A program made the translations under genes and the position numbers. Shown in pieces: positions 37,683 to 62,818 of a DNA stretch of 64,000 nt. The notes beneath the pieces are model-generated. The model was not told the origin of the DNA and did not search any database. It saw only the letters and a list, made by a program, of their open reading frames with translations. Position 1 is the first letter of the stretch. The number at the start of each line of letters is the position of its first letter. Location of the stretch: the NCBI GenBank assembly GCA_963746255.1, contig CAVVAJ010000001.1:70039-134038 (forward strand), given 5' to 3'. Origin of the DNA: an uncultured Chloroflexia bacterium. Lineage in GTDB: Bacteria; Chloroflexota; Anaerolineae; Anaerolineales; UBA4823.

Positions 37683-38489
37683 ATGACAGTCGAAGGTGCC
37701 ACAAAAGTCAGTTCAACAAGCGAAATGGATCGCAATTACAGGGGGCTGCGGCGCTTCAATCTCATCATGGGATTCCTGCACCTAATCCAGGGTGTTTTCA
37801 TGATCCTGGTCAGCAATGACACCACATACCCCATCTTTACCAATTACCTGAACTTCGATCCTGCCACCCGCTCGTTGATACCGAACTCACAACTATTCTA
37901 TGAACTACCTTTTGGCCCGGCGGTGGCGATGTTCTTGCTCATCTCCGCCGTGGCACACTTCTATCTGGCAACTATTGGCTATGGTCGCTATGTGGAAAAC
38001 TTGAAGAAAGGCATGAATCCAGTCCGCTTTTATGAATATGCTCTCAGCTCTTCGCTGATGATTGTGCTGATTGGCATGCTGATTGGGCTTTGGGATCTGG
38101 GAGCCATCATCCTGATCTTCACGCTCAATGCCACGATGAATCTATTTGGCATTATGATGGAGTTGCATAACCAACACACCCAAAAGGTAAACTGGACAGC
38201 ATTCATTTACGGCTGTATTGCCGGGTTCGTCCCGTGGGTGGTCATCATGCTGTACTTTGTGGGTGCGGTTAACTCCGGCGATGCCAAGCCACCAGATTTT
38301 GTGTACGCCATTGTTCCGACACTGTTTGTTTTCTTCAACATTTTCGCGATCAACATGGTTTTGCAATACAAAAAAGTGGGCCCTTGGAAGGATTACCTGT
38401 TTGGCGAACGTGTCTACATTATTCTGAGCCTTTCAGCCAAATCCGTTCTGTGTTGGCTGATCTGGACTGGTACGCTCGCACCAGTCTAA
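37683..38489 (+). CDS. Heliorhodopsin.
   Basis: Collinear with heliorhodopsin 48C12. GFLHLIQG (His23 context), SAVAHFYLA (His80), RFYEYALSSSLMIVLIG (Glu107 counterion), GERVYIILSLSAKSVLCWLIWTGTLAPV (retinal Lys). Confidence 0.9.
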   Translation: MTVEGATKVSSTSEMDRNYRGLRRFNLIMGFLHLIQGVFMILVSNDTTYPIFTNYLNFDPATRSLIPNSQLFYELPFGPAVAMFLLISAVAHFYLATIGYGRYVENLKKGMNPVRFYEYALSSSLMIVLIGMLIGLWDLGAIILIFTLNATMNLFGIMMELHNQHTQKVNWTAFIYGCIAGFVPWVVIMLYFVGAVNSGDAKPPDFVYAIVPTLFVFFNIFAINMVLQYKKVGPWKDYLFGERVYIILSLSAKSVLCWLIWTGTLAPV

Positions 38490-38514
38490 GGCAAGAAGCA
38501 GTCAAACGTGGAAC

Positions 38515-38685
38515 CCAGACGGGTCTGAACCAATTATCCTTCGCATTTCCAGCAGGCAGCCATCCATCATCTATTGGAGGGTTGCCTGCTTGTTTTTTTT
38601 CACCTTCTCAATCACTCAACTCCGGAATTACGTCTCCCACGCAGACTGTCAATCGTGATTATGTGGATCAAGGTGGATCAGGAAC
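38515..38685. repeat. Copy 1 of a ~170-bp direct repeat (terminator hairpin plus the junction into a truncated glycosyltransferase).
   Basis: Aligns with 40933..41103. Confidence 0.8.
38551..38600 (+). terminator. Rho-independent terminator of the heliorhodopsin gene.
   Basis: Stem agcaggcagcc / ggttgcctgct followed by tgtttttttt. Confidence 0.8.
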
Positions 38686-38950
38686 AACTCATTCGGCACT
38701 AAAATATGGTTGTCCAACAATGATTATTCCCCATATAATTGACCAGTTTGTGTGGAGTAAAAATACTTCTGATATAGGCGTGGGACCTCACGGAGTAAAA
38801 GTGGGTAAAATCACCACTAAAAATCTTGAACCCAAAATTCTCGAATTAATGAATAATATTTCCTTCAAAAAGAAGGCAGAGCAGATGGCAACCGTAATAG
38901 AAAAGGAATATTTTTGCGAAGAAATTTATAAAGCAATAATTGAAGAATAA
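38650..38950 (+). pseudogene. 3' fragment of a GT1/MGT-family glycosyltransferase.
   Basis: DQGGSGTTHSALKYGCPTMIIPHIIDQFVWS... (the HHGGxGT...DQ C-terminal signature). No N-terminal domain. Confidence 0.7.
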
Positions 38951-38955
38951 GAGCC

Positions 38956-39087
38956 GGCAAACAAAGCGTGCACTGGACGCTGGGGATTCTACGGCACTTA
39001 CGATAAGCATTTTTCTGGCTTTGAGTTTTTTCTGCTCCCAAAAAATAGTTCCACCCGCCCCAGCGCCAGTAACACAAATCGTTGGGC
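38956..39087 (+). mobile_element. attC-like recombination site (132 nt).
   Basis: Starts 6 nt after the stop codon. Ends are GGCAAAC...GTTGGGC. Arm GCGTGCACTGGACGCTGGGG pairs with CCCCAGCGCCAGTAACAC, leaving unpaired bases on the 5' arm. Confidence 0.6.
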
Positions 39088-39173
39088 GGCTAAGTTTCAA
39101 CTAGCGTTTAACGCCATTATCCACTTACCGCATCGAAATGCTGTGCAATGGTTGATTTTTCAGCAGGATCGAC

Positions 39174-39776
39174 ATGAGAGAACGTCCACAGCCGAAGGTA
39201 TGGACGAAAAGAACGTACAACGGCCTCGCCAAATACTACGATTTGTTCATGAGGGTCTCTTTCCCTATTGGGGAAAAGGGAATAGAGAGAATTGTTGAGC
39301 GATTGAGCTCCGGTTCGGTACTGGATGTTGCTTGTGGTACAGGGACGCTTCTGAACTTGGCACACAAAAAGGGTTTGGAATGCAATGGTATCGACAATTC
39401 TCAAGGGATGCTCAACCAAGCGAGAGACAAGGTACCGAGTGCTGAATTGATCAGGGCAAGTTACTGCGAAATACCATATCAGGATGGACGGTTTGACTAT
39501 GTTGTGGCAACCAATGCTCTAAGCGGGACCTGCATAGATGCGACACGTGTGATCTCAGAGATGACAAGAGTGTGTAAGAGCGGTGGTGGAATCTTCATAG
39601 CGGAGTGGCCCAAAGCGGTGACAGAAACCTTGATAGAACGACTTATGGTGTGGCTGGCAAGTCTGAGCGAAGATGCTCCCAAGGATTACCAGGCGATTTT
39701 CGCAGGATTGGGATACGAGCCAGAAGTAGAGGTTCTTAGCAAAAGGTACAGCATTTTCGGAATAGAGAAGCAGTAG
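39174..39776 (+). CDS. Class I SAM-dependent methyltransferase.
   Basis: VLDVACGTGTLLNLA motif I. Methyltransf_11-like. Confidence 0.8.
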   Translation: MRERPQPKVWTKRTYNGLAKYYDLFMRVSFPIGEKGIERIVERLSSGSVLDVACGTGTLLNLAHKKGLECNGIDNSQGMLNQARDKVPSAELIRASYCEIPYQDGRFDYVVATNALSGTCIDATRVISEMTRVCKSGGGIFIAEWPKAVTETLIERLMVWLASLSEDAPKDYQAIFAGLGYEPEVEVLSKRYSIFGIEKQ

Positions 39777-39821
39777 GACTGAGATAGTGGTCAAATAGTC
39801 CGTATTTGCTCAAACATGGCT

Positions 39822-39945
39822 GCCCAACACAGCGTGCAGCGGATGGTGGAGAGGTTGGCGAGCAATCGTGCTCTCTGCGCCCCGGTCGGATTGGGGCGCA
39901 GCGGCTTCCCTGTCCACCCACCGCCGCTAATGAAAGCCGTTGAGC
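39822..39945 (+). mobile_element. attC-like recombination site (124 nt).
   Basis: GCCCAAC...GTTGAGC termini. The 5' arm AGCGTGCAGCGGATGGTGGA pairs imperfectly with TCCACCCACCGCCGCTAAT. Confidence 0.55.
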
Positions 39946-40000
39946 GGAATACTTAATGGGTAATACCAATTTTTGACCATCATTATATTGGGAGAAGATT

Positions 40001-40783
40001 ATGGACCCCAAGCACATTTTGGCTCTTTACGACCAAGATCGAAAAGGTGTCAGTCTCTATGGTATGCAACGAGAAGAGACTTCTCACCTTGTTCGGCATA
40101 TATCTCCCAGTGGTGAAGGGGTGATTATTTATTCCAACCTTAATTCTACTAATGTCGAAGAAGTCATTCATGAAGAGATTGCCCACTTTGAAAGCAGGGG
40201 ATACGATTTTAGCTGGGTCGTATTCCGACACGACACTCCCGCGAACCTAAAAGACCGTTTACTCGCAAACGGATTCCTAAATGAAGAGTCAGACGCGATT
40301 ATGATCCTTGACATCGAAGATTTATCCCCGGTCTTAGTGAAACCGATTTGCCATGATGTACAACAGATTACCGATCCCAACAAAATCGATGATGTCCTCA
40401 CCATTCGTCAACAAGTGTGGCAAAGTGATTATTCGTCGATGGCTCAGTCCCTTACCAAACGATTAATAGACGCCCCTGAAAGTCTGGGGCTTTATGTAGC
40501 CTACATAGATGGAAAACCGGCTAGCACAGCTCAAATCAGCTTCTATCAAAAAGGGCACTTCGCTGGTCTTGTTCAGGCAGCTACATTACCTGGCTACCGG
40601 GGGCGTGGTTTATACACCGCTTTAATTGCGATGCGAGTTCAAGAAGCAAGGCGGCGGGGAATACGTTTAGTGGATGCAGACGCCAGTCCCATGAGCCGCC
40701 CCATTTTAGAAAAGCTTGGTTTTCAATGCCTCACAGAGACCTATTCTTGTGAGTGGCATGTCAAACAGGTATCAACAGGCTAA
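40001..40783 (+). CDS. GNAT-family N-acetyltransferase.
   Basis: LPGYRGRGLYTALIAMRVQEARRRG acetyl-CoA motif. RBS gggaga. Confidence 0.8.
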   Translation: MDPKHILALYDQDRKGVSLYGMQREETSHLVRHISPSGEGVIIYSNLNSTNVEEVIHEEIAHFESRGYDFSWVVFRHDTPANLKDRLLANGFLNEESDAIMILDIEDLSPVLVKPICHDVQQITDPNKIDDVLTIRQQVWQSDYSSMAQSLTKRLIDAPESLGLYVAYIDGKPASTAQISFYQKGHFAGLVQAATLPGYRGRGLYTALIAMRVQEARRRGIRLVDADASPMSRPILEKLGFQCLTETYSCEWHVKQVSTG

Positions 40784-40932
40784 TTACCAATAGATATCGA
40801 CCTTGTCTCCAAAAATCCACCCAGCGCACTGTAACTCGAGATATAGACACTATGACTGAGCATGAAGGTAAAGAGTATTACCTGGCTAGCAAGTCAGAAA
40901 TCCTGAGGTAGTTGGACGTCTACGCGAGGGAG

Positions 40933-41103
40933 TGGAGGCCAGACAGGTCTGAACAAATTATCCTTCGCATTTCCAGCAGGCAGCCATCCATCAGCTATTG
41001 GAGGGCTGCTTGCTTATTTTTCCCCTTCTCAATCACTCAGCCTGGGATAAACATCTCCCAAGAAGACCGTCAATCGTGATTATCTGGATCAAGGCGGACC
41101 AAC
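40933..41103. repeat. Copy 2 of the ~170-bp direct repeat.
   Basis: Aligns with 38515..38685, including the hairpin. Confidence 0.8.
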
Positions 41104-41226: not shown

Positions 41227-42537
41227 TCAGCTCAAAAACACGGGGGTAAATTCAGGACTGCTAGAAGTCGATCTACTCATAGGACAATCCGAAACCAAAG
41301 GGATAGAGTGGGCTGTCCACGGAAAAACGACGTTGATGGCTGGTACACCCGATTTAACCAGTTTTGTGTAGAGTGCACGGGTATCTTTTGCGGGAACAGC
41401 GAAGTCTTGCTTCCCATGCAGGAGCAGCGTCGGCGGACAACCAGCAGCAACATGGGTGATAGGCGATGTTAGTTCATATGCATTAAGCGCATCCTGGGGA
41501 TGGCCGCCCAATAAGACATCCAACCGGCCAGCATCACGGAAATTCTTCTTGTATTCGGGATTTTCGCCGATATATATTGGGGGCAAACCTACCGTTTGTT
41601 GCAGATTCCAATGTTGATATACAGCCAGCAAGTCTGTGGGACCATAGTAGGAGATTACGCCGCACACGGATAGATCGGTACTTTTGAGTTCATCTGGAGT
41701 TAACTCAGGATGTTCAGGGGTATATCCAGCCAACAGGGCGATATACCCTCCTGCTGAACCACCCCCTAAAACAATTTTCTCAGGATTCACACCATAATGG
41801 GATGCATTAGCCTTCATCCAGGCAAGCGCGCGTTTGGCATCAGCGACCATGCCGTAGATATCCACTTCAGGGCAAAGGCGATACGATACATCCATCACGG
41901 TATGTCCCTGTGCTGCCAGGTGCCGGAAGAAGGGCCGTGTTCCTAGATCTTTATCAAACAAGTACCAGCTGCTTCCGTGAAAGTAGACAAAGGCCAAGCC
42001 GGAAACATCACCATTGGCCGGACGCCAGAGGTCGCAGAGCAGCTGCCGGTCCGTACCGGGAATGGTCCAGAACGGGACATCGCGCTCCCAGATAGGCTCC
42101 GGAGACGCTTTCATCTTCAAATACATTGACCAGCGCCGCTTGACCATATGCTTGGACTGCCCAGGAGGGATCTGGTCTGACCAGCCGGTACCAAAGGCTT
42201 TTTCAAAACCATCCTGAGCGCGAGTGCACGCCCAGACATACCAGACCATTGTAATTGCACCAATGATCCCCATCGGAACAGCACCGAGAGCACCATATAC
42301 CCACCCAAGGACAGCTCCTGCTGCACCTACAACAGCCCAAAACGGAGACAAAGATACTGCCAATAGTTTTGGAAGCAAAACAATCCACCCAAAAGGAAAC
42401 TTCGATTTTATTACCAGCAGACCACTCATCAGCAGTGCGAAACCTGAAAGGGTGTAAGCTAGAATAATCATGATTCCCTCCAAAATCGTTATCAGAGAAA
42501 CGCCCGTATCCTCAGTCCAAGCATTACTCACAAACAT
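41227..42537 (-). CDS. Membrane-anchored alpha/beta hydrolase (esterase/lipase, HSL-like), paralogue A. Its last ~35 codons are replaced by unrelated sequence.
   Basis: N-terminal TM bundle. YFHGSSW and GGGSAGG motifs. The C-terminus diverges from paralogues B and C after FPWTAH. Confidence 0.75.
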   Translation of the reverse strand: MFVSNAWTEDTGVSLITILEGIMIILAYTLSGFALLMSGLLVIKSKFPFGWIVLLPKLLAVSLSPFWAVVGAAGAVLGWVYGALGAVPMGIIGAITMVWYVWACTRAQDGFEKAFGTGWSDQIPPGQSKHMVKRRWSMYLKMKASPEPIWERDVPFWTIPGTDRQLLCDLWRPANGDVSGLAFVYFHGSSWYLFDKDLGTRPFFRHLAAQGHTVMDVSYRLCPEVDIYGMVADAKRALAWMKANASHYGVNPEKIVLGGGSAGGYIALLAGYTPEHPELTPDELKSTDLSVCGVISYYGPTDLLAVYQHWNLQQTVGLPPIYIGENPEYKKNFRDAGRLDVLLGGHPQDALNAYELTSPITHVAAGCPPTLLLHGKQDFAVPAKDTRALYTKLVKSGVPAINVVFPWTAHSIPLVSDCPMSRSTSSSPEFTPVFLS

Positions 42538-42547
42538 TGATCACATA

Positions 42548-43843
42548 TCAATCCTTGTTTACCAATAGTGCCAAAAATCGATCCACATCGTACAATGCCG
42601 ACTGGGAGGCCGGGTTTATCTGCGGTAAAAGCAAGTCAAACCCATGGGGTGTCCACGGAAAAACGACGTTAATGGCTGGTACACCGGATTCAAGGAGTTT
42701 GGTGTAGAGTGCACAGGTGGCGTCCTGGGAAGTAACGTGGTCTTGTGCCCCTTGCAAAAGCAGCGTGGGCGGGCAACCAGGATGAACATGGCTGATGGGT
42801 GAGGCTAATTGATACATGTGTGGTGCGTCCTGGGGCCAGCCGCCCAACAAGATATCGAAACGGGCTGCGTAACGCATTCTTTTGGAAGGAGCAATCACTG
42901 TTCCAAGAGGTACTGGGGGCTCGCCTTCCAATTTTTGTAGTTTCATATATTCAAATAAGAACAGCAAGTCTGTTGGCCCGTAGTGGGAGATGACACCGCA
43001 CACGGATAGATCGGCACTTGTGAGGTCCTCTGGTGTTAACTCAGGATGTTGAGGTGCGTAGCCTGCCAATAGGGCAAGATGTCCACCTGCAGAACCGCCC
43101 CCTAAAACGATCTTTTCAGGGTTCACACCATAACGGGATGCATTGGATTTCATCCAGGCAACCGCTCGTTTGACGTCCCCGATCATGCCATAAATATCAA
43201 CTTCGGGACAAAGGCGATACGATACATCCATCACGGTATGTCCCTGTGCTACCAGGTGTTGAAAGAAAAGCCTTGTATACATATCTTTATCCCCGATAGC
43301 CCAGGCGCTTCCATGCAGGTAGATGTATGCCAGGCCGGTAGTATTGCCACCTGCCGGGCGCCAGAGGTCGCAAAGCAGCTGACGGTCCGTACCGGGAATG
43401 GTCGAGAATGGGACATCGCGCTCCCAGGAAGGCTCCGGAGAGGCTTTCATCTTCAAAAATACTGGCCAGCGCTTCTGAACCATTTGCTTGATTTGGTGAG
43501 GCGCTATCTGGTCTGACCAGCCAGCACCAAAGGCATTATCAAAACCGTCGTGATCCCGAGTGCATCGCCAGACATACCAGCTCATCATGCCCGCACCAAA
43601 GATCCCCATTGGAACAGCCCAGAGAGCGCCATATCCCCACCCAAGGACAGCTCCAGCTGCGCCCAGGATTGCCCAGACTGGCGACAATGCTCCTGCGATC
43701 AGCTTTGGCATCCAAACGATCCATCCTAAGCTACTCTTTGCATAAATCAAGAGCAGAACACTCATTAGAAGGGATAAACCTGAGAGGATGGTTGCCAAAA
43801 TAATCATGTTGCCCTCCAAAATCGTTATCAGAGAAACGCCCAA
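42548..43843 (-). CDS. Membrane-anchored alpha/beta hydrolase, paralogue B (intact).
   Basis: 431-aa ORF. YLHGSAW and GGGSAGG. Confidence 0.8.
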   Translation of the reverse strand: MGVSLITILEGNMIILATILSGLSLLMSVLLLIYAKSSLGWIVWMPKLIAGALSPVWAILGAAGAVLGWGYGALWAVPMGIFGAGMMSWYVWRCTRDHDGFDNAFGAGWSDQIAPHQIKQMVQKRWPVFLKMKASPEPSWERDVPFSTIPGTDRQLLCDLWRPAGGNTTGLAYIYLHGSAWAIGDKDMYTRLFFQHLVAQGHTVMDVSYRLCPEVDIYGMIGDVKRAVAWMKSNASRYGVNPEKIVLGGGSAGGHLALLAGYAPQHPELTPEDLTSADLSVCGVISHYGPTDLLFLFEYMKLQKLEGEPPVPLGTVIAPSKRMRYAARFDILLGGWPQDAPHMYQLASPISHVHPGCPPTLLLQGAQDHVTSQDATCALYTKLLESGVPAINVVFPWTPHGFDLLLPQINPASQSALYDVDRFLALLVNKD

Positions 43844-43884
43844 CAGTGTGTGTTGCTGGCGGCGGGATCGTTAGTGCTGATGCT

Positions 43885-44782
43885 TCAGTTGTCGTTCAGG
43901 AAATCGAGCACTCGCGCATCGACGATTCGATACTGGCTGCCGCACATGTTGTGACTGGACTGTGGCACCAGATCCCCTTCGAAAATCGGGAAGGAGCGCC
44001 CGCGCCCGGGCCAATGCCTTTGCTGGGTCATAGATGACCTCGCGGTCGCCAATGAGCAGCAGCACGGGTACATGCACTGCGCGCAGTTCGTCATCAGAGA
44101 ACACACTGGGCATGATACGCGCTGTCTCGGGCGGAAATCGAAAATGCTTCATACCGAGATAGAACAAGTCAAGTAAGCGCCGAGAAACCGTGTCACCGGG
44201 CGTATCTTTGATTCCCATCCATCCCATGAATGAGTCCGCTGTGAGGCGTGTTGGGAAGAGCGTCATCAGCATCACGCGCAGCATGAACTGTTTGACAATC
44301 GGCAGGAAGCTGGCTCCCGGTGATAGCAGCACAAGTTTTCGAACGCGCGCCGGCTCTACCATAGTGAAGTGGAGGGCCAGCCACCCACCGTAGGACATGC
44401 CCACCAGAGAGATGCGGTCCAGGTTCAGCCCGTCCAAGGTCTCGCGCAACCAGGCGACGAAGTCTCCCGCTTCGCGTATCGGTTCATCGGGATTGGGGAT
44501 GCTCTTGCCTGGTTGACCCATCACATCGATGGCATACACCCGGTAGTCCTTGCTGAAATCGGCGACATTGGGTGACCACATATTCAAAGTCATCGCCATT
44601 CCGTGCAAGAGTACCAACGGTGGGGCATCTTTCGGACCAGTGACGACGACATGCGTGGTCCCAAACCGACTTGGGATCTCTACTTCTTCATACGGAACCG
44701 GCCATAACTTCATGGCGGCGTCATACGCCGCGAGATACGCAGCTTCACCTTCGGGAGTCTTGAAAGCAGATATGTGAGTCAT
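43885..44782 (-). CDS. Alpha/beta-fold hydrolase of a different subfamily. A 1-nt indel in a CCC run near 43990 affects the frame.
   Basis: LVLLHGMAMT and LVGMSYGGWLAL. The natural C-terminus ...SSHNM...VDARVLDFLNDN* is in ORF 43885..44106. Confidence 0.75.
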
Positions 44783-44785
44783 TGT

Positions 44786-46046
44786 TTATCCTTTGTTTAA
44801 CAATAGTGCCAGAAATCGATCCACATCGTACAGTGCCGACTGGGCTGCCGGGTTTATTTGTGGAAGCAGCAAGTCAAAGGCGTGCTCTGTCCACGGAAAA
44901 ACGACGTCGATGGCCGGTACGCCTGATTCAACCAGTTTTGCGTAGAGCTCCTGGTTGCCCTCCACGGGATTAAGGCAGTCTCTGTCCCCTCGCAGGCTCA
45001 GCGTGGGCGGGGAACCAGGATGAACATGGGTGGTTGGGCAGGCCAATCGATACATGTCAGGTACGTCTTCGGGATAACCGCCCAACAGGATATCCAACCG
45101 GCCAGCATAAAGCATTGGATTTTTGGGATCGGCTTTTGTGCCAAGGGGCACTGGGGGCTTGCGCTCGTTGTTATATCGTTTAGCGCCAGCCACCAGGTCT
45201 GTGGGAGGGTAGTAGGTGACCATGCCGCACACGGACAGGTCGGCACCTTTGAGTTCCTGCGGTGTTAACTCAGGATGCTCAGGCGTATAGCCTGCCAACA
45301 GGGCGATATGTGCCCCTGCAGAACCGCCTCCTAAAACGATCTTTTCAGGGTCCACCCCATAACGGTCTGCATTGGCTTTCATCCAGGCAACCGCGCGTTT
45401 GGCGTCTCCGACCATGCCGTAGATATCCACTTCGGGAATAAGGCGATAGGCAACATCCATCACCGTATGTCCCTGTGCTACCAGGTGTTGAAAGAAAGGC
45501 CTTGTGTACATATCTTTATCCCCGATAGCCCAGGCGCTTCCGTGCAGGTAGATGTATGCCAGGCCGGTAGTTTTGCCATCGGCTGGACGCCAGAGGTCAC
45601 AGAGCAGCTGACGGTCCGTACCGGGAATGGTCCAGAAAGGGATATCGCGCTCCCAGATAGGCTCTGGAGAGGCTTTCATCTTCAAATATCATGACCAACG
45701 CTTTTTGACCATAAGCCTGGCTTGCTCTGGCGTTATTTGCTCTGCCCAGCCGGCACCAAACGCATTTTCAAAACCGTTGTGATCCCGGGTGCACCCCCAG
45801 ACATACAAGATCATCAGTAACAGCACCAAGGATCCCCATGAGCACGGCCCAGGGAGCGCCATACACCCAGCCAAGAAGAGCGCCAACTGCGCCCATGATC
45901 GCCCAAATCGGTGATAATGCGCCTGCGGTCAGAGGTAAAAATAATACGAGCAGCAGCGAAACCTTAGGTTTAATGAGGAACAAGACACTCATTAGAAATG
46001 ATAGACTTGAGAGTGTGGTTGCTAGAATAATCATGATTATCTCCAA
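44786..46046 (-). pseudogene. Membrane-anchored alpha/beta hydrolase, paralogue C. The N-terminal TM region is split over three frames.
   Basis: ORFs 44786..45685, 45689..45886 and 45768..46046 are collinear with paralogue B. Confidence 0.7.
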
Positions 46047-46171
46047 AAATTGTTATTTGAGTAACGTACAACGGATAAGCTCACCCAACGGGTGCTTTTG
46101 CGATCGAGACTTGCCGGTCGTAGCCAACTGCGCTGTCCCATGCGCCGCGATTTGTCCCAAGCGAGCCCTGG

Positions 46172-46552
46172 TCAGCGTGCAGTGGGGGTTGGGCGCAACC
46201 CACCCTTTGTACTTCCTATATGGATACCCAGATGCAAGAAACGGATGGCTACCCAGCACGCCGGGTAGAAGAGCGGGATAAGACATCCCACACCTACCAG
46301 CGTTCCATACTCCCTCCACCATGAGGAAGCCTCCAACCAGGGATACGTACTACCCCGGAGGGAAAGGAAAACTACCAGCGCTTGCACGATCAGCCCGATG
46401 ACAGTACAAGACGACAACATGATCAACGGCTCAGCCCAAGTAATCGTGCCTGCTGAAACCTGTTGATGGAGCTCAACTTTTGAATTAGGGGATGTTTTTT
46501 CGGGAGCGTTCATGGTCATACTCCTTTCTGTGGGCACGTGCTGCGTCATCAT
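46172..46552 (-). pseudogene. Fragment of a membrane protein (possibly the N-terminus of a CPBP-like protein), frameshifted and truncated.
   Basis: ORFs 46172..46552 and 46053..46322. Weak pattern only. Confidence 0.25.
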
Positions 46553-46824: not shown

Positions 46825-48377
46825 TTACGCTTTCCCGTTGGATTCCACCTCGAGGCCGCAGTTGTTGATGACCAGCTTGCCATCCATGAACAGGGCGTCC
46901 ACCCGGCTGCCGATCAGGCGGAAATCCTCCAGCGGGTCGCCGTCCAGGATCACCAGGTCGGCTGTCTTTCCGCTTTCGATGGAGCCGAATTCCTCCTCCA
47001 GTCCCAGGGAGCGGGCGCTGTTGATGGTGGCGATCTTGACTGCCTCGGCGCCGCTCAGTTGCTTTCCGTCCGGCTTGCCCTTCAAGACATGATCAAACAT
47101 GAGCAATTCGAGGTCCATCATAGCCGGCGTACATGGAGGTATGGTGTCGTTTGCAGTCGTCATGGGAACGCCATGTTCGTAGAGCAGACAAAAATTTTCG
47201 AATGCAGTGGCAGCTTTGGTGTCCCATGCAAACATCCCAGACATATCTATGATGCCCATCATTTTGGGTTTGCCGCTGGCGCACCTCTTGTAGCCGTTCA
47301 TCACACTGGCTCTCAATTCAGGGATATAGTATTCATCTGCAATAGCCGCAAAGGTATAGGTCTTGTCCCTGAACTCTGTTAACCTGTCGAGCTCCGGATG
47401 GCCGTTCGAACGATCTCTCGCCAACTTCCAGGAAAACATTGCGTAGAATACAGAGACCGTAGGGTCATTGATGCAACCAGCTGCCTTGAAAGCCTCCACA
47501 TCCGCCTGGGTGAGCAGGGCATCCCAGGGCTCGTGCTCCAGTGATGACACACCGGCCTTTACCCCACGCCGAAAGGACTCAACCGATGAATGGTGCATCA
47601 TCGACTGCACCCCGCGACGCCGCGCCTGGTCTGCCACGGCGCTGAGTTGTTCGATGGTCATGATCGGTATGGGCTTACCGAGTAATGATGCTGGTGGCCT
47701 CATCCCCAATCTTGATCACATCTGCCCCACGCTCATCGATGGCGATATCAACGGCATCCCTGACCTGTTCCTTCCGTCGCGTCTATGGGGAATGCCACGG
47801 ACCCTCCATAGTCTTTTGAAGGGTCAGCACTTGGCATCAGGAGCTTGGACATCAGAGAAGCTTTCTCCTGCAAATAAGACCCCGGCAGACCGACAGCAAC
47901 GGCCTGCAGGATGCGCGGGCCCGGGATTTCACCCTTTGAAATTCGTTCCTTTAGGGCTCTGTTTTCACGCAGGTCTGGCCGACCACGCGTCCCTGATGTG
48001 GGTGATGCCGTGAGCAAGGCATTCCGCCATATTCTTATCTTTCTGCTGTCCTGTGTGTCTTTTTATAAGCCCCCGCTCGCGCAGACCTGGAATCATTGTA
48101 GGTCCAACCGCCATCAGGTGACAGTGGGTGTTGTACAGACTGGGAAGCACGGTCTTGCCCTGCAGGTCAATGCGTAAAGTCAGGCTTGATGCTGGTCGGC
48201 TCGCCTGCAAGACCCGGCATGGACTCGATCTCCCCGCCTTGCAGAATGACGCTCGTTCCCGCATCGAAGTAGCGGCCATTGACCACGTCCAGGATGCGGC
48301 CATTCACTCAGCTCCACCCGGGCCTGGTTACCCGGCTCGTACTGCTTGACGAAATTGGTTTTAGAAGTCTCCATCAT
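46825..48377 (-). pseudogene. Amidohydrolase-family metallo-hydrolase, split over four frames.
   Basis: ORFs 48180..48377, 47965..48303 (YNTHCHL), 47748..48017 and 46825..47709 (GSIESGKTADLVILDGDPL). Confidence 0.75.
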
Positions 48378-51780: not shown

Positions 51781-51969
51781 TCATGTCCATATTTTCCATG
51801 CCGTGTTACTGTGGTTGCAGCCGGTTGCAGCAGGATCACTAATCCGCGGCATGAAGTAAGGAGAACAGGCTTGTGTCCAGTTCCGAGTTGGTAAGGTAAA
51901 GGATGTATCCCCGAAATAACCGCATGGGTAGGCGTGTGGTTCATAACTACGGCGGGTTGAAGATTGCAA
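51781..51969 (-). pseudogene. Degenerate relic related to the ComM/YifB-like fragment at 62.5-62.7 kb.
   Basis: SYEPHAYPCGYFGDT... A 17-nt identity (51933-51949) with 62722-62738. Confidence 0.4.
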
Positions 51970-52710: not shown

Positions 52711-52809
52711 GCCTAACGTTCCGCTTCAGCCGCGGGCTTCGCTGGCGCGGACCTTTCCCAAGCAAGGGCCGTGACAGGGAGAACCGTCTGCTGCAAACAG
52801 TGGTTAGGC
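52711..52809 (-). mobile_element. attC-like recombination site (99 nt, top strand minus).
   Basis: GCCTAAC...GTTAGGC on both strands. The TAA stop of 52804..53532 lies inside GCCTAAC. Confidence 0.45.
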
Positions 52810-53532
52810 TGAAGCCAGCTCAATTACATTGGTACCATCATAAAACAAAATGCATTTATCATACGTGGTTCTAAATAAATTAGTGAATATTCCTTCATCC
52901 AAATCGGAATATGAAGCTACATTGTCACCTCGTATCTCAATAATTAAAACAAGTTCATCACACTCGTACTTATCTGGTGGGACTTTGAGATCCTTTCGAG
53001 AGATTTCATCTTGAATATGTTTTGAATTAATCATTGGAACCCATCCTGATGTGATTGGTTTGCATGAATGACTTGTTATTACGGGAGAACGCATAAGCTT
53101 AACGATTCGAACTTGAGATGAATATGGAATATCTATAGAGAGGACTTCAGAGATCGGTATCCTTTCATCATTCTGTATCACAGTTTGAATAATTTCTTCA
53201 GCTAAAGATGGCAATATTTTTTTCGAAAGGGGATTGTTACGAAAGTGAAGGAATATTTTGGTTGGAATGAAAGCAATATGTGTTAATTTGCTCTCAACAA
53301 GATTACATAATTTATTTCTAAGCCCCTCCTGCTCCACCCACAAAACTCCATCATGGTCATGTGTTTGATAATATGTTGTCAGTTCAATTCCAATTTTGAT
53401 CCCTTCTGGTGTTGTCAGTATAAAATCTGGTGGATCTTCGTCTACAATATCTCCAGTGGGGAATTTGCTCCATATTTCTTTAACTTTCGAAAGAACTTGT
53501 TTTTCGCGTTCTTTTTTATGTACTTGATTCAT
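52804..53532 (-). CDS. Hypothetical protein (242 aa), low GC. Weak PD-(D/E)xK-like motif.
   Basis: DPPDFILTTPEGIKIGIELT. Otherwise no family recognised. Confidence 0.5.
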   Translation of the reverse strand: MNQVHKKEREKQVLSKVKEIWSKFPTGDIVDEDPPDFILTTPEGIKIGIELTTYYQTHDHDGVLWVEQEGLRNKLCNLVESKLTHIAFIPTKIFLHFRNNPLSKKILPSLAEEIIQTVIQNDERIPISEVLSIDIPYSSQVRIVKLMRSPVITSHSCKPITSGWVPMINSKHIQDEISRKDLKVPPDKYECDELVLIIEIRGDNVASYSDLDEGIFTNLFRTTYDKCILFYDGTNVIELASA

Positions 53533-53610
53533 AATTCACTTTTCTTGCTGGCGAACCAGCCCAACTCGTGATCCGAACGCCTTAGGCACACTAGAACTTA
53601 TAGATTCCAG

Positions 53611-53802
53611 TCAGCCCAAAATATTTAGGCCGCCAAAGATTAACAAAACCGCCCACGCAAACAGTTGCATGAGCGGCTCCAATGTTATTCTATGATTGCC
53701 ACGCACCCGCCTGCGTGTGCCATAACGGACATACCAATAGCACAGCCCGTTTTTGTTGTTATTCAAAGTATAGATGATATTTTCAATCCTCACAAGTAAC
53801 AT
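53611..53802 (-). CDS. Small tail-anchored protein (63 aa) inside duplicated unit A.
   Basis: C-terminal TM LFAWAVLLIFGGLNILG. Copy B carries a premature stop. Confidence 0.35.
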   Translation of the reverse strand: MLLVRIENIIYTLNNNKNGLCYWYVRYGTRRRVRGNHRITLEPLMQLFAWAVLLIFGGLNILG

Positions 53803-53825
53803 TCCTCCAATTCATCAAGTCGTCA

Positions 53826-54107
53826 TTAGAATGTCACATCCCCATCAATTGACTCCCACTTATCCTCATCCCACGACTGCTCTACAGGCAGCGGCCACAA
53901 TCGCATCATCTCCATCTGGGGGCAAGTTATAACCAATGTATTCACAGGTTGAGCGGGTGGGGTGTAATATTGCAACTCGCAATTACCAGGGAGATGCATC
54001 GCTGTAATGCCTTCTGCGACATGGAACGTCCTTTGGGCCATTACAGGGTAGGCCTGCAGGAAGGTGAGTAAAGCGATGACAAGTACTAAAATAACTGCAT
54101 CCCACAA
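53826..54107 (-). CDS. Small secreted protein (93 aa, two Cys) inside duplicated unit A.
   Basis: Signal-like N-terminus ...LQAYPVMAQ. TTG start. Conserved in copy B. Confidence 0.5.
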   Translation of the reverse strand: MWDAVILVLVIALLTFLQAYPVMAQRTFHVAEGITAMHLPGNCELQYYTPPAQPVNTLVITCPQMEMMRLWPLPVEQSWDEDKWESIDGDVTF

Positions 54108-54347
54108 GTCGGGTGCACGCTATGTTAGGCGGCTCTCACCTGCATAGCCAAGCCGTACAATCCTTTCAACTGTCGGGCAACAGTGAGCGAAATGAGCTGA
54201 ACCGTGAATGACCAGTTAGGCGTAGTGCTGCGTAGCATCGTAACCTTAGGTATTTTGGGAGAGCATATGAAAAGCGATAGCAGTCCCAATAAAAATTAGG
54301 TTTATTCGTGCTCAACAAGTATAAAATTTGTGTTTGCCAATGCAGAA

Positions 54348-55407: not shown

Positions 55408-55532
55408 GCCTAACGAGCTATTCAGCGGCTTGGCGTTTTGGCTCCGATTGAATTTTACACCCAATCCAAACTTAGATTTTAGCGCCGCTTATCACCTTGG
55501 CGTAGCCAAGTCGGCTGCAATTTGGGTTGGGC
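55408..55532 (-). mobile_element. attC-like recombination site (125 nt, top strand minus).
   Basis: Minus strand reads GCCCAAC (6 nt after the stop) ... GTTAGGC. Arm ATTGCAGCCGACTTGGC pairs with GCCAAGCCGCTGAAT, leaving an unpaired A. Confidence 0.55.
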
Positions 55533-55538
55533 CGCCCG

Positions 55539-56297
55539 TTATCTACCAAAACCAGCCTTCTTGAACACATAAATCGACCACCCAATTGTCTCCCGCCCCC
55601 ACCTCAAGTAGTTCTCCCGATTCTCCCCTACTCGCTTCAACACCTCTCCCACGTCAGGATCGTCCGGATGCTCACTTGCCCACTCCGTCGCCGCATACCA
55701 CTGCAATCCCTCATATCTGTCCCAATCATCCTGGTTGCTTACCAACGTGTAGACCAGCTCTAGCCCGAGCTTTTGTCCTGCCTCCACATTCTCGTAGTGC
55801 GTCCCAAACGTGCTCCGTTCTTCTCCGATGGCTTCCAAATACTCTGCTACTGGTTCTTGTCGCCAGTATGGTTCCCCCACGACCACCCAGCTTCCGAGGG
55901 CTGCCATCTCGTTCAGCGCCTTGAGTGTTCCTTCGTGGCTGCCATAGATCCAGCTCGCTCCAATGCAGGCTACTAGATCAAAACTCTCCGGCTCCTCCAC
56001 CTCATAATCCGCCCCATCCATTTCCAAGAACGTCAACTGAGCATCTGGAACACGTTCTTTATACTTTTCCTCGGCATCCGAAACACAGTACGGCGAGAGA
56101 TCGATCCCTATTCCTCCAATCTTATACCGTTCCGCCAGCCGGATGATGAACTCACCCTTACCCATGGCAATCTCAAGCACTTGTGCTCCAGGCTTCAACC
56201 GCAGCAGAGCAATGAGTTCCTCAAATTTCTCAACACTCATCGGGTTACAGAGAACGTGTTCCCGATGTGTTATATCAAAATACTTCCATCGGTCCAT
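55539..56297 (-). CDS. Class I SAM-dependent methyltransferase.
   Basis: RBS caggagg. MDRWKYFDITH...VLEIAMGKGEFIIRLAE. Paralogue of 27013..27531. Confidence 0.85.
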   Translation of the reverse strand: MDRWKYFDITHREHVLCNPMSVEKFEELIALLRLKPGAQVLEIAMGKGEFIIRLAERYKIGGIGIDLSPYCVSDAEEKYKERVPDAQLTFLEMDGADYEVEEPESFDLVACIGASWIYGSHEGTLKALNEMAALGSWVVVGEPYWRQEPVAEYLEAIGEERSTFGTHYENVEAGQKLGLELVYTLVSNQDDWDRYEGLQWYAATEWASEHPDDPDVGEVLKRVGENRENYLRWGRETIGWSIYVFKKAGFGR

Positions 56298-56327
56298 CTT
56301 CAACCTCCTGTCAAATGGGCGGCCCAA

Positions 56328-56943
56328 CTCGTGATTAGAACGCCTTAGGCACACTAGAACTTATAGATTCCAGTCAGCCTAAAATATTTAGGCCGCCAAA
56401 GATTAACAAAACCGCCCACACAAACAGCTACATGAGCGGCTCCAACGTTATTCTATGGTTGCCACGCACCCGCCTGCGTGTGCCATAACGGACAGACCAA
56501 TAGCATAGCCCGTTTTTGTTGTTAGTCAAAGTATAGATGAAATTATCAATCCCCACAAGCGACATACCTCCAATTCATCAACACGTCTTCAGAATGTTAC
56601 ATCCCCATTAATTGACTTCCACTTATCCTCATCCCACGACTGCCGCACAGGCAGCGGCCACAATCGCATCATCTCCATCCCAGGGCAAGTTAGCACCAAC
56701 GTATTCACGGGTTGAGCGGGCGGGGTGTAATATTGCAACTCGCAATTGCCAGGGAGGTGCATCGCTGTTATGCCTTCTGCGACATGGAACGTCCTTTGGG
56801 CCATTACAGGGTAGGCCTGCAGGAAGGTGAGTAAAGCGATGACAAGTACTAAGATAACCGCATCCCACAAGTCGGGTGCACGCTATGTTAGGCGGCTCTC
56901 ACCTGCATAGCCAAGCCGTACAATCCTTTCAACTGTCGGGCAA
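56328..56943 (-). repeat. 616-nt duplicated unit, copy B.
   Basis: See 53565..54180. Confidence 0.85.
56589..56870 (-). CDS. Small secreted protein (93 aa), copy B.
   Basis: 88 of 93 residues identical to 53826..54107. Confidence 0.5.
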   Translation of the reverse strand: MWDAVILVLVIALLTFLQAYPVMAQRTFHVAEGITAMHLPGNCELQYYTPPAQPVNTLVLTCPGMEMMRLWPLPVRQSWDEDKWKSINGDVTF

Positions 56944-60899: not shown

Positions 60900-61655
60900 A
60901 TGCCGGGAGTAGAAGGACGGGTGGCGTTGGTAACGGGTGCTGGACGTGGAATTGGGCGGGTGGCGGCTGATCTGCTGGCCTCACGCGGTGCTCGGGTGAT
61001 GGCCGTTGCGCGCAGCGAGAATGAATTGCAGACGCTGGGCCTGGACTACGTTGTGGCGGATCTGGGTACACATGACGGCTGTACACTTGCGGTGGAGGAA
61101 ACACAGGATCGCCTGGGGCCGGTTGCAGTCCTGGTGTGCAATCACGGTATTGGTTCGGCCCATGAGCGGGTGATCTGGGAGCAGGAGCCGGAGGTCTGGC
61201 GCGAAACAATGCGCATCAACCTAGATGGTCCTTATTACCTGTCACAGCTAGTTGTCAAAGACATGATTGAACAGGGTTATGGACGGCTTGTGTTCACGAG
61301 TTCGACAGCCGGACAGGTGGCGGAATACGCCGGCAGCGCTTACAACAGTTCAAAACACGGTCTTCTGGGCCTGATGCGCTCGGTTGCCCAGGATGCTGGG
61401 CCGCATGGCGTGACTTCCAACGCGGTGCTGCCCGGCTGGGTGCGAACACAAATGGCTGAGACTTCGGCCAAAGTCGAAGCCGAGCAGCGTTGTATCACCC
61501 CGGACGAGGTGTGGGCGGAAAGGGCTGCGCTTTACCCGGTGGGCCGGGTGGTGACACCCGAAGAAGTGGCCGAGGTGATCGCCTTCCTGGCATCCGAAGA
61601 ATCCAGTGGCGTCAACGGGGAGGCCATAACCGTAGCCCTTGGAAGCATATGGTGA
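60900..61655 (+). CDS. SDR-family oxidoreductase (FabG-like).
   Basis: VTGAGRGIG and YNSSKHG. RBS gggag. Confidence 0.85.
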   Translation: MPGVEGRVALVTGAGRGIGRVAADLLASRGARVMAVARSENELQTLGLDYVVADLGTHDGCTLAVEETQDRLGPVAVLVCNHGIGSAHERVIWEQEPEVWRETMRINLDGPYYLSQLVVKDMIEQGYGRLVFTSSTAGQVAEYAGSAYNSSKHGLLGLMRSVAQDAGPHGVTSNAVLPGWVRTQMAETSAKVEAEQRCITPDEVWAERAALYPVGRVVTPEEVAEVIAFLASEESSGVNGEAITVALGSIW

Positions 61656-61777: not shown

Positions 61778-61908
61778 GCCTAACATCGCGTGCACCCGAC
61801 AGGTGGGATTCGCCCCGCCAAAAAGAGTTGCTTCTGTACTTGAAGGTTTTCCGTCAAAGCAGTCCCTTTCCCGTCCCGCCCACCTGCGGGTAACGCAAAC
61901 CGTTAGGC
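61778..61908 (+). mobile_element. attC-like recombination site (131 nt), the best example.
   Basis: GCCTAAC...GTTAGGC. Arm GCGTGCACCCGACAGGTGGG pairs with CCCACCTGCGGGTAACGC, with a GC/A mismatch-bulge and an unpaired A on the 5' arm. Confidence 0.65.
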
Positions 61909-62432: not shown

Positions 62433-62475
62433 GCCTAACATAGCGTGCACCTGACGCTGGGGATTCTGCGGCGTT
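62433..62475 (+). mobile_element. 5' half of an attC-like site of the same family. The 3' arm is absent.
   Basis: GCCTAACATAGCGTGCACCTGACGCTGGGGATTC, then unrelated sequence. Confidence 0.45.
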
Positions 62476-62488
62476 TTTGGGCTTTTCT

Positions 62489-62725
62489 CTACGCCTTAGC
62501 CTTTTTCTGTTCGGACGGCTCTTCAACGCGCTTTTGGATGGCAATTGAAGGTTCTCCCAATCGATCTTCGCGCAGCTTGTCACAGTCCACACGCGGCACT
62601 TCGACATGGATATCGATACGGTCTAACAATGGTCCAGAGATGCGTTTTTGGTAGCGGGTGATGACCGTGTTTGAACAGGTGCACGGCTTTGCTGTGTCGC
62701 CGTAATAGCCGCAGGGACAGACGTG
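62489..62725 (-). pseudogene. Internal fragment of a ComM/YifB-family (Mg-chelatase-like) ATPase gene.
   Basis: CPCGYYGDTAKPCTCSNTVITRYQKRISGPLLDRIDIHVEVPRV...GEPS. Both the N- and C-terminal parts are missing. Confidence 0.7.
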
Positions 62726-62818
62726 TGGTTCATAACTATGGCAAATAGGCATTATGGAGAATGTCGACAAATGGCACAGGGTTTTGACATTTCACGTGAA
62801 GGATGAACTCAAAGCATA

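Follow-up and report, generated by a model that had tools for sequence, protein, structure and literature searches.

The stretch of DNA analyzed here (the window) comprises 64,000 nt of contig CAVVAJ010000001.1 from an uncultured Chloroflexia bacterium. Downstream from its heliorhodopsin gene, three reading frames follow each other on the plus strand: a glycosyltransferase fragment, a methyltransferase, and a GNAT acetyltransferase. The first two are each followed by a long imperfect hairpin, hp1 (132 nt, 38956–39087, plus strand) and hp2 (124 nt, 39822–39945, plus strand). We read hp1 and hp2, with a probability of about 0.88, as integron attC sites that bound gene cassettes, and the array as a probably decaying CALIN (a cluster of attC sites that lacks an integron integrase), built from an attC family of the Anaerolineae type. 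A preliminary description, made from the letters alone, had proposed a gene-cassette array with the plus strand as top strand. The proposal is supported by family models that match both hairpins, by the linkage of the family to integrases, by the cassette spacing, and by the common orientation of the sites and the open reading frames (ORFs).

Anatomy and folding of hp1 and hp2

In attC sites, R and L boxes are combined with an unpaired spacer of 5–6 nt and a variable terminal structure, for a total of 57–141 bp (Nivina et al. 2016, PMC5027507). The lengths of hp1 and hp2 (132 and 124 nt) lie inside this range. The extrahelical bases are on the '' arm, usually a G at position 16 of the bottom strand and a conserved T at 23–24, with a 6-bp stem separating the first from the last (PMC5027507). 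hp1 starts 5 nt past the stop codon of the glycosyltransferase fragment (38948–38950) and consists of R'' GGCAAAC (38956–38962), L'' GCGTGCAC, L' GTAAC, and R' GTTGGGC (39081–39087). hp2 starts 45 nt past the stop codon of the methyltransferase (39774–39776), with R'' GCCCAAC (39822–39828), L'' GCGTGCAG, L' GCTAAT, and R' GTTGAGC (39939–39945). Both hairpins of 124–132 nt that the preliminary description had placed behind these two genes are indeed there. It had also taken all the outer 7-mers to fit RYYYAAC...GTTRRRY; this holds for both ends of hp2 and for R' of hp1, but not for R'' of hp1, which deviates at positions 2 and 4 (two of seven). On another contig (L088, 4129–4256), a site nearly identical to hp1 throughout, loop included, has GCCCAAC in place of GGCAAAC, and R'' of hp1 is therefore considered a mutated copy.

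In the layout of the window sites, R'' occupies positions 1–7, a 5-nt spacer positions 8–12, and the GTG of L'' positions 13–15, while on the 3′ side L' (...GTAAC) is separated from R' by a spacer of 7 nt. On the top strand, C16 and A22 are unpaired (G and T on the bottom strand), on the 5′ arm (R''–L'') only. Folding confirms in this way what had been noticed in the letters, an inner-arm architecture common to both hairpins with two bases unpaired on the 5′ arm alone. The crossover is predicted to occur between G and TT of R', at 39081/39082 in hp1 and at 39939/39940 in hp2.

When folded as single-stranded DNA, the plus strands of hp1 and hp2 and the minus strand of hp2 surpass shuffled sequences (z about −2.8); the minus strand of hp1 does so weakly (z −1.6). 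The folding energies of bottom and top strands show no consistent difference and do not inform on the strand. No T run follows hp1 or hp2, and a terminator scan calls neither as a plus-strand terminator.

The attC sites of class 1 cassettes, or 59-base elements (those of aadB, aadA1/2, blaVIM-2, cmlA1, estX, and others), show the same box order: R'' comes first, then a spacer of 5 nt and L'' (GTNC/GTTG...), followed by an L' with TAAC at its end, a second spacer, and R' GTTRRRY. They also have an unpaired base at 16 and an unpaired A 6–7 nt further, and hp2 is like the 5′ arm of the cmlA1 site. On the other hand, the window sites are twice as long, their 3′ spacer has 7 nt versus 5–6, they have five Watson–Crick pairs and not six between the unpaired positions, and a model derived from class 1 sites gives them only 12–16 bits. 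In an alternative register, G15 would be extrahelical and the C16/A24 mismatch would become a G·T wobble on the bottom strand, which would yield six steps on the bottom strand only.

A family of 130-nt sites beside integron integrases

When one genome per species was scanned for the pattern, 29 stretches came up. Only three are true relatives, all in metagenome-assembled genomes (MAGs) of Chloroflexota: L004 and L021 (Chloroflexia) and L026 (Anaerolineaceae). In L026, the sites form an array on one strand with a spacing of 560–720 nt. The remaining 26 stretches were rejected as members of the family, since they represent a conserved coding motif or chance matches. In metagenomes, matches to the family occur on at least 120 contigs, many with two to six matches on the same strand. 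At least 191 distinct complete sites were gathered, with lengths that peak sharply at 129–130 nt. AAC is set by the search pattern and GTT by the rule for finding ends, and their invariance in the 175 family sites of 100–150 nt is for this reason not independent; in the same way, positions 15, 16, 22, and 24 are set by the search patterns, and their family-wide conservation is no evidence.

Two models were built from sites outside the window, an nhmmer profile from 170 family sites and a covariance model (R2) from 45 diverse ones (129 positions, 23 pairs). The profile matches both hairpins over the full length (hp1, E 1e-25; hp2, E 2e-8). R2 gives 104 bits to hp1 (E 2e-29) and 46.6 bits to hp2 (E 4e-12), values in or near the range of 83–135 bits obtained for family sites that adjoin integrases. 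In an Rfam scan of the window at gathering thresholds, no Rfam family matches the sites. The top strands of family sites have a GC skew of −0.12 and an AT skew of −0.08, negative as reported for attC. On the strength of the two models, we assign hp1 and hp2 to a homogeneous family of ~130-nt attC sites typical of Anaerolineae/Chloroflexota integrons.

The link to integrons is seen on the contigs that carry the family. With IntI1 as tblastn query (checked to be 100% identical to annotated intI1), full-length homologs are found on L086, L088, and L057 (47–50% identity, E ≤ 1e-98; 49% identity for L088). In all three, the integrase is divergent from the attC sites' top strand, as in the classic integron layout. 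The integrase of L086 scores 457 bits against NCBIfam TIGR02249 "integron integrase" (cutoff 265), and among named proteins it is closest (76–84% identity) to integron integrases from MAGs of Chloroflexi, Anaerolineae, and Anaerolineales. In the Anaerolineales MAG GCA_028715805.1 (L170), a HigB/HTH cassette and then a family attC (82.8 bits) lie directly beside intI. The complete Anaerolineae/Chloroflexota integrons L170, L086, L088, and L057 share their attC family with the window (the L088 site is almost identical to hp1) and differ from it by their divergent intI, of which the window has none.

In the Chloroflexia MAG L021, an intI (4985–5434, minus strand) is cut after about 98 residues (TIGR02249 positions 1–84). 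It lies between family sites at 3590–3750 and 6035–6189 (plus strand), the 3′ arms of which are decayed. With its shortened gene and decayed arms, L021 can be regarded as a second degrading integron of this attC family.

The spacing and orientation of the sites are those of cassette arrays. The putative cassettes between consecutive family sites (n = 85, from loci among the matches listed) have a median length of 863 bp; the longest ORF has the orientation of the attC top strand in 81 of them and the opposite orientation in four. Sites on both strands are present in only two of 121 loci. The Vibrio cholerae repeats (VCR, ~123–133 nt) are similar in several respects: they too are long (~130 nt) and homogeneous within a lineage, with a long and partly conserved variable terminal structure, and they too form co-oriented cassette arrays (~0.8 kb) beside a divergent intI. 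The window family differs in its sequence (GCCYAAC-A.AGC-GTGCAC..GAC ... GTAACGCAAACC-GTTRGGC) and in its lineage, Anaerolineae. VCR2 has three unpaired positions versus two in the window sites, and in the window the family occurs only as scattered remnants without integrase.

The structure was also examined by covariation in the 45 sites from outside the window. RNAalifold pairs GCGT with ACGC, followed by a 5-bp stem, a bulged A, and a further stem, with compensatory changes in seven of the 16 predicted pairs. In the full structure, 91.7% of the cells in this alignment are paired (81.3% in shuffles), 127 cells are compensatory (51.5 in shuffles), and the covariation score is 0.288 (0.106 in shuffles); none of 500 shuffles reaches the observed number of compensatory cells or the observed score. 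After sliding the 3′ partners by 1–3 columns, only 18–43% of the cells are paired. In the set of 175 sites, 94% of the cells at positions left free by the search pattern are paired, versus a maximum of 66% in 1000 shuffles. As judged from this covariation, the hairpin structure is under selection.

The R boxes behave differently from the stems. While the stems are more than 90% paired (about 95% in the family alignment), the variable R-box positions (1, 2, and 4 versus 40, 39, and 37) are complementary in 53–73% of the sites (55–74% in the larger set of 175 sites), so that the variable positions of R''/R', in columns 1–4 and 136–139 of the family alignment, are unpaired in 27–47% of them. Low complementarity would be expected if a crossover between G and TT makes each R' a hybrid with the 3′ part of the neighboring cassette. 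From established integron biology, such a relaxation would be the footprint expected from cassette shuffling.

In a few family sites, the two arms are mutually non-complementary; in L144 (7971–8099, minus strand), for instance, ACTAG-A-CGCTGGGG faces CCCACACG-CGGGT, and L062 has another such site. Such sites suggest that the arms of different sites were joined via the conserved loop, by homologous recombination between attC sites.

Cassettes and attC remnants in the window

The heliorhodopsin gene (37683–38489, plus strand; PF18761, E 5e-101) lies directly upstream of the cassettes. Relatives that are 85–96% identical occur on many Anaerolineales metagenome contigs. The closest named relatives are from Anaerolineales and Bellilinea, and on this basis the window is assigned to Anaerolineae. 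The next reading frame is the 3′ fragment of a GT1-family glycosyltransferase (38657–38950, plus strand; PF06722 EryCIII-like_C, E 2.6e-10). It covers only positions 52–142 of the 145 in the profile, with about 95 last codons, and its GC content is 33.8% versus 49% in the window. By its profile coverage it is a truncated first cassette, a pseudogene lacking about 300 N-terminal codons.

The methyltransferase cassette is complete, with 858 bp (39082–39939, plus strand) from the predicted crossover point of hp1 to that of hp2. Its ORF of 200 aa (39174–39776, plus strand) encodes a class I S-adenosylmethionine-dependent methyltransferase (Pfam Methyltransf_25/11, E ~1e-18), with a weak homolog in L085. 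The third cassette (39940–40835, plus strand) contains a GNAT acetyltransferase ORF of 260 aa (40001–40783, plus strand; Pfam Acetyltransf_1) and is without intact attC. A homolog of this GNAT, 48% identical, is located on the metagenome contig L069 downstream from a family attC (713–866) and is then followed by a marginal, short attC-like match (13.8 bits, E 0.39). In the window, a possible attC remnant follows the GNAT gene at 40806–40835 (plus strand). It resembles the 3′ half of an hp1-like attC, ends at GTAAC, and has no R' box. The preliminary description had seen a remnant resembling a 3′ arm at about 40825–40850; the candidate lies slightly to the left of that place, and the evidence for it is weak (no match with the family sequence profile; a pairwise score of 27 with hp1, reached in eight of 2000 shuffles). 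The GNAT cassette, as we read its 3′ end, has lost its own attC and retains at most a vestige.

The term CALIN was defined for IntegronFinder as an attC cluster without integron integrase, in a survey that also recorded integrons in Chloroflexi (Cury et al. 2016, PMC4889954). The array agrees with the definition in having two or more attC sites on the same strand with less than 4 kb between them (hp1 and hp2 are 866 nt apart, start to start, on the plus strand), in lacking an intI or an intI pseudogene within 10 kb (there is none in the whole window), and in its cassettes, which encode accessory functions other than resistance. It differs in that the call rests on family-specific and proxy models and not on IntegronFinder, and in having a truncated first cassette and a bracket of 174-nt direct repeats. 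The window has no attI and no Pc promoter, and the array begins on its left with a truncated gene and not with an attI. With intI, attI, and Pc all missing from the window, the array is classified as a CALIN and not as a complete integron.

A simple box scan and a search with the common 5′ arm turned up additional family copies in the window, namely the intact site at 61778 and the three truncated ones described below, and the whole window was searched without filters with a proxy model (R1) made of 12 attC sites of class 1 cassettes from annotated plasmids. The four top matches of R1 are 52809–52711 (minus strand), 61778–61908 (plus strand), hp2, and 55532–55408 (minus strand); all four have exactly the predicted ends and sit just 3′ of a co-oriented gene. 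The best match (52711–52809, minus strand; 99 nt, GCCTAAC...GTTAGGC; 21.2 bits, E 0.0075) adjoins the 3′ end of a 242-aa ORF (52804–53532, minus strand). The fourth (55408–55532, minus strand; 125 nt, 11.9 bits, E 1.4) is 3′ of a methyltransferase ORF identified by Pfam (55539–56354, minus strand). These two sites on the minus strand are intact and of a shorter, different type. The site at 61778–61908 (plus strand; 131 nt, GCCTAAC...GTTAGGC) is an intact member of the family (R2, 94 bits, E 2e-26; nhmmer, E 5e-19; R1, 16.3 bits, E 0.12), located 3′ of an SDR gene (60900–61655). A candidate from the box scan at 46083–46194 was rejected, with no support from R1, R2, or nhmmer.

Three further family sites are truncated. 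At 62433–62529 (plus strand), only the 5′ 97 positions are present (nhmmer, E 2e-19, profile positions 1–97; R2, 40.7 bits, with the 3′ part forced). The site is cut after position 97 and joined to a fragment of a Mg-chelatase-like gene (62489–62770, minus strand; Pfam), and a related fragment is found at 51904–51953, 82% identical over 50 nt. The two others, at 56832–56896 and 54069–54133 (both on the minus strand), are 5′ halves (nhmmer, E 5e-8 and 6e-8, respectively; profile positions 1–66 in both cases). R2 reports neither, and no 3′ partner for either was found in the window. A module of about 575 nt is duplicated on the minus strand (53559–54133 and 56322–56896; 2763 nt apart, 92% identical over 300 nt), and each of its copies starts with one of these two attC halves, followed by a 93-aa ORF without Pfam match. 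At 56832–56896, an inverted repeat was recorded in addition to this duplication.

Altogether, attC sites form three clusters of alternating orientation, on the plus strand at 38.9–40 kb, on the minus strand at 52.7–56.9 kb, and on the plus strand at 61.8–62.5 kb. With nhmmer and R2, no family copy is detected in the housekeeping-like part of the window (1–38 kb), and copies occur only at 38.9–62.6 kb. Between the clusters there are ordinary-looking genes. Among these, a run of tandem alpha/beta-hydrolase genes (41227–45685, minus strand) encodes proteins of 436, 431, 303, and 299 aa, three of which are clear paralogs; the run lies directly to the right of the mini-array, with no attC sites between the genes. 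The 436-aa protein matches Pfam BD-FAE (PF20434), and the 299-aa copy is without the N-terminal membrane part. Further to the right, an amidohydrolase ORF (46825–47709, minus strand) matches only the C-terminal part of its Pfam profile (positions 133–345 of 345) and overlaps a long antisense ORF; it is probably another gene fragment in a degraded region.

Signs of decay or foreign origin are the glycosyltransferase fragment with 34% GC, the mutated R'' of hp1, the lost attC of the GNAT cassette, and the three truncated attC sites; further right, the amidohydrolase and Mg-chelatase-like gene fragments add to them. The array is probably decaying.

Competing explanations and biological meaning

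Several observations speak against the reading of hp1 and hp2 as attC sites of a CALIN. With two mismatches in R'' and one in L', hp1 may no longer be recombinogenic. Between C16 and A22, there are five Watson–Crick pairs and not the six reported as needed for IntI1. R1 scores hp2 at only 12.1 bits (E 1.3, rank 3 with 128 kb searched) and does not report hp1 at E ≤ 10. The same model also misses family sites that adjoin IntI, in which the long loop is too costly; R1 is therefore insensitive to long sites and its negatives carry no weight. The 64-kb window has no intI, even as a pseudogene, as judged from Pfam on the main ORFs and from tblastn, where every match with IntI1 or with the L086 integrase has E > 1. 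Lastly, the 174-nt direct repeats that bracket the array are not an integron feature.

Possibly, although we consider it unlikely, the array is a still active outpost of a large, sedentary integron of the chromosome, with intI outside the window and with cassettes still excised and re-inserted in trans. hp2 and the site at 61778, in which the R and L boxes are intact, would suit such an activity, as would the three attC clusters inside 24 kb and the large size of the Anaerolineae IntI clade. Also, about half of the CALINs are in replicons that encode IntI, and rearrangements are known to split arrays (Cury et al., PMC4889954). However, intI is absent over at least 38 kb to the left and 24 kb to the right of hp1, the clusters are in opposite orientations with non-cassette genes between them, and decay is apparent in the mutated R'' of hp1, the lost GNAT attC, the three truncated sites, and several gene fragments.

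The direct repeats raise a second question. Copy 1 (38508–38681, plus strand; 174 nt) starts 18 nt past the heliorhodopsin stop codon and contains a terminator-like hairpin with a T run, while on the right it extends over the eight opening codons of the glycosyltransferase fragment. Copy 2 (40932–41102, plus strand) closes a unit of 2424 nt (38508–40931). The copies are 87% identical and 2424 nt apart, and they bracket the whole mini-array. The junction with the truncated glycosyltransferase lies inside the repeat and is for this reason older than the duplication of the repeat. On contigs with heliorhodopsin relatives, the homology ends at the stop codon with no conserved synteny downstream, so that these contigs yielded no "empty site". 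The integration of a circle through the repeat by a single crossover would fit the repeat, as would a tandem duplication followed by a deletion, whereas integrase-mediated insertion would not be expected to produce such a repeat.

From these features, one could regard the 2.4-kb unit as a separate mobile or duplicated module, set by the 174-nt repeats and moved by homologous recombination or tandem duplication with old cassettes on board. The two repeat copies, the age of the glycosyltransferase junction, and the end of the heliorhodopsin homology at the stop codon would all be compatible with such a module. Yet neither the rest of the window nor about 170 fetched loci contain the repeat, the unit has neither terminal inverted repeats nor a transposase, and what follows copy 2 does not resemble the 2424-nt unit, so that a second copy of its tail is missing. 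Further, a module of this sort would account for the arrival of the array and not for the identity of the hairpins. We hold it for improbable, slightly more so than the outpost.

A last interpretation, that the sites are palindromes of the repetitive extragenic palindrome (REP) or terminator type in Chloroflexota that merely resemble attC and are unrelated to integrons, would agree with sites just downstream from genes, a window without integrase, and the lack of an Rfam match, but it is hardly tenable and was rejected, because four loci have the family next to integron integrases and one more has it next to an intI remnant, the RYYYAAC/GTTRRRY ends show relaxed complementarity beyond GTT together with asymmetric bulges over 124–132 nt (REP-like sequences and intrinsic terminators are short GC-rich palindromes scattered behind core operons, in terminators with a T run after them), the sites have cassette spacing and are strictly co-oriented with ORFs, no T run follows them, and there are none in the housekeeping-like half.

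With hp1 and hp2 taken as attC sites of a CALIN, the following scheme can be proposed. On the plus strand, the two sites would delimit the truncated glycosyltransferase cassette, the complete 858-bp methyltransferase cassette, and the start of the GNAT cassette. As established for integrons, the bottom strand of each site would fold with R'' paired to R' and L'' to L', leaving the extrahelical bases on the '' arm. Again as in known integrons, a cassette would be freed as a circle when two attC sites recombine and inserted when attC recombines with attI. The array would then be a stranded piece of a cassette array, movable only by an integrase encoded elsewhere and transcribed only from local or read-through promoters. 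Its place beside the heliorhodopsin gene would be due to a rearrangement or to homologous recombination, and not to attI × attC insertion.

A broader proposal, which we offer as doubtful and with still less confidence than the two integron-related alternatives above, is that the 130-nt family is the signature attC of an uncharacterized and very abundant class of Anaerolineae sedentary integrons. In such sites, the unpaired bases would be closer together by one step, and on the bottom strand only, a G·T wobble would bring back the canonical spacing; the sites would be co-adapted to their own integrase clade. The repeat-bracketed 2.4-kb unit would then represent pieces of arrays relocated by homologous recombination and not by an integrase.

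Knowledge of how integrons work is unchanged by these findings. For the organism, the three genes beside the heliorhodopsin can be annotated as probable integron cassettes, of which the first is dead, the second complete, and the third without attC, and the region from 38.9 to 62.6 kb appears as a graveyard of cassette arrays and not as core genome. For the Chloroflexota, an attC family is now defined by at least 191 distinct sites and a covariance model, with a tie to a named Anaerolineae IntI clade; the 11 published attC models for particular taxa (PMC8352920) do not include it. The family could serve to assign metagenomic cassettes to Chloroflexota.

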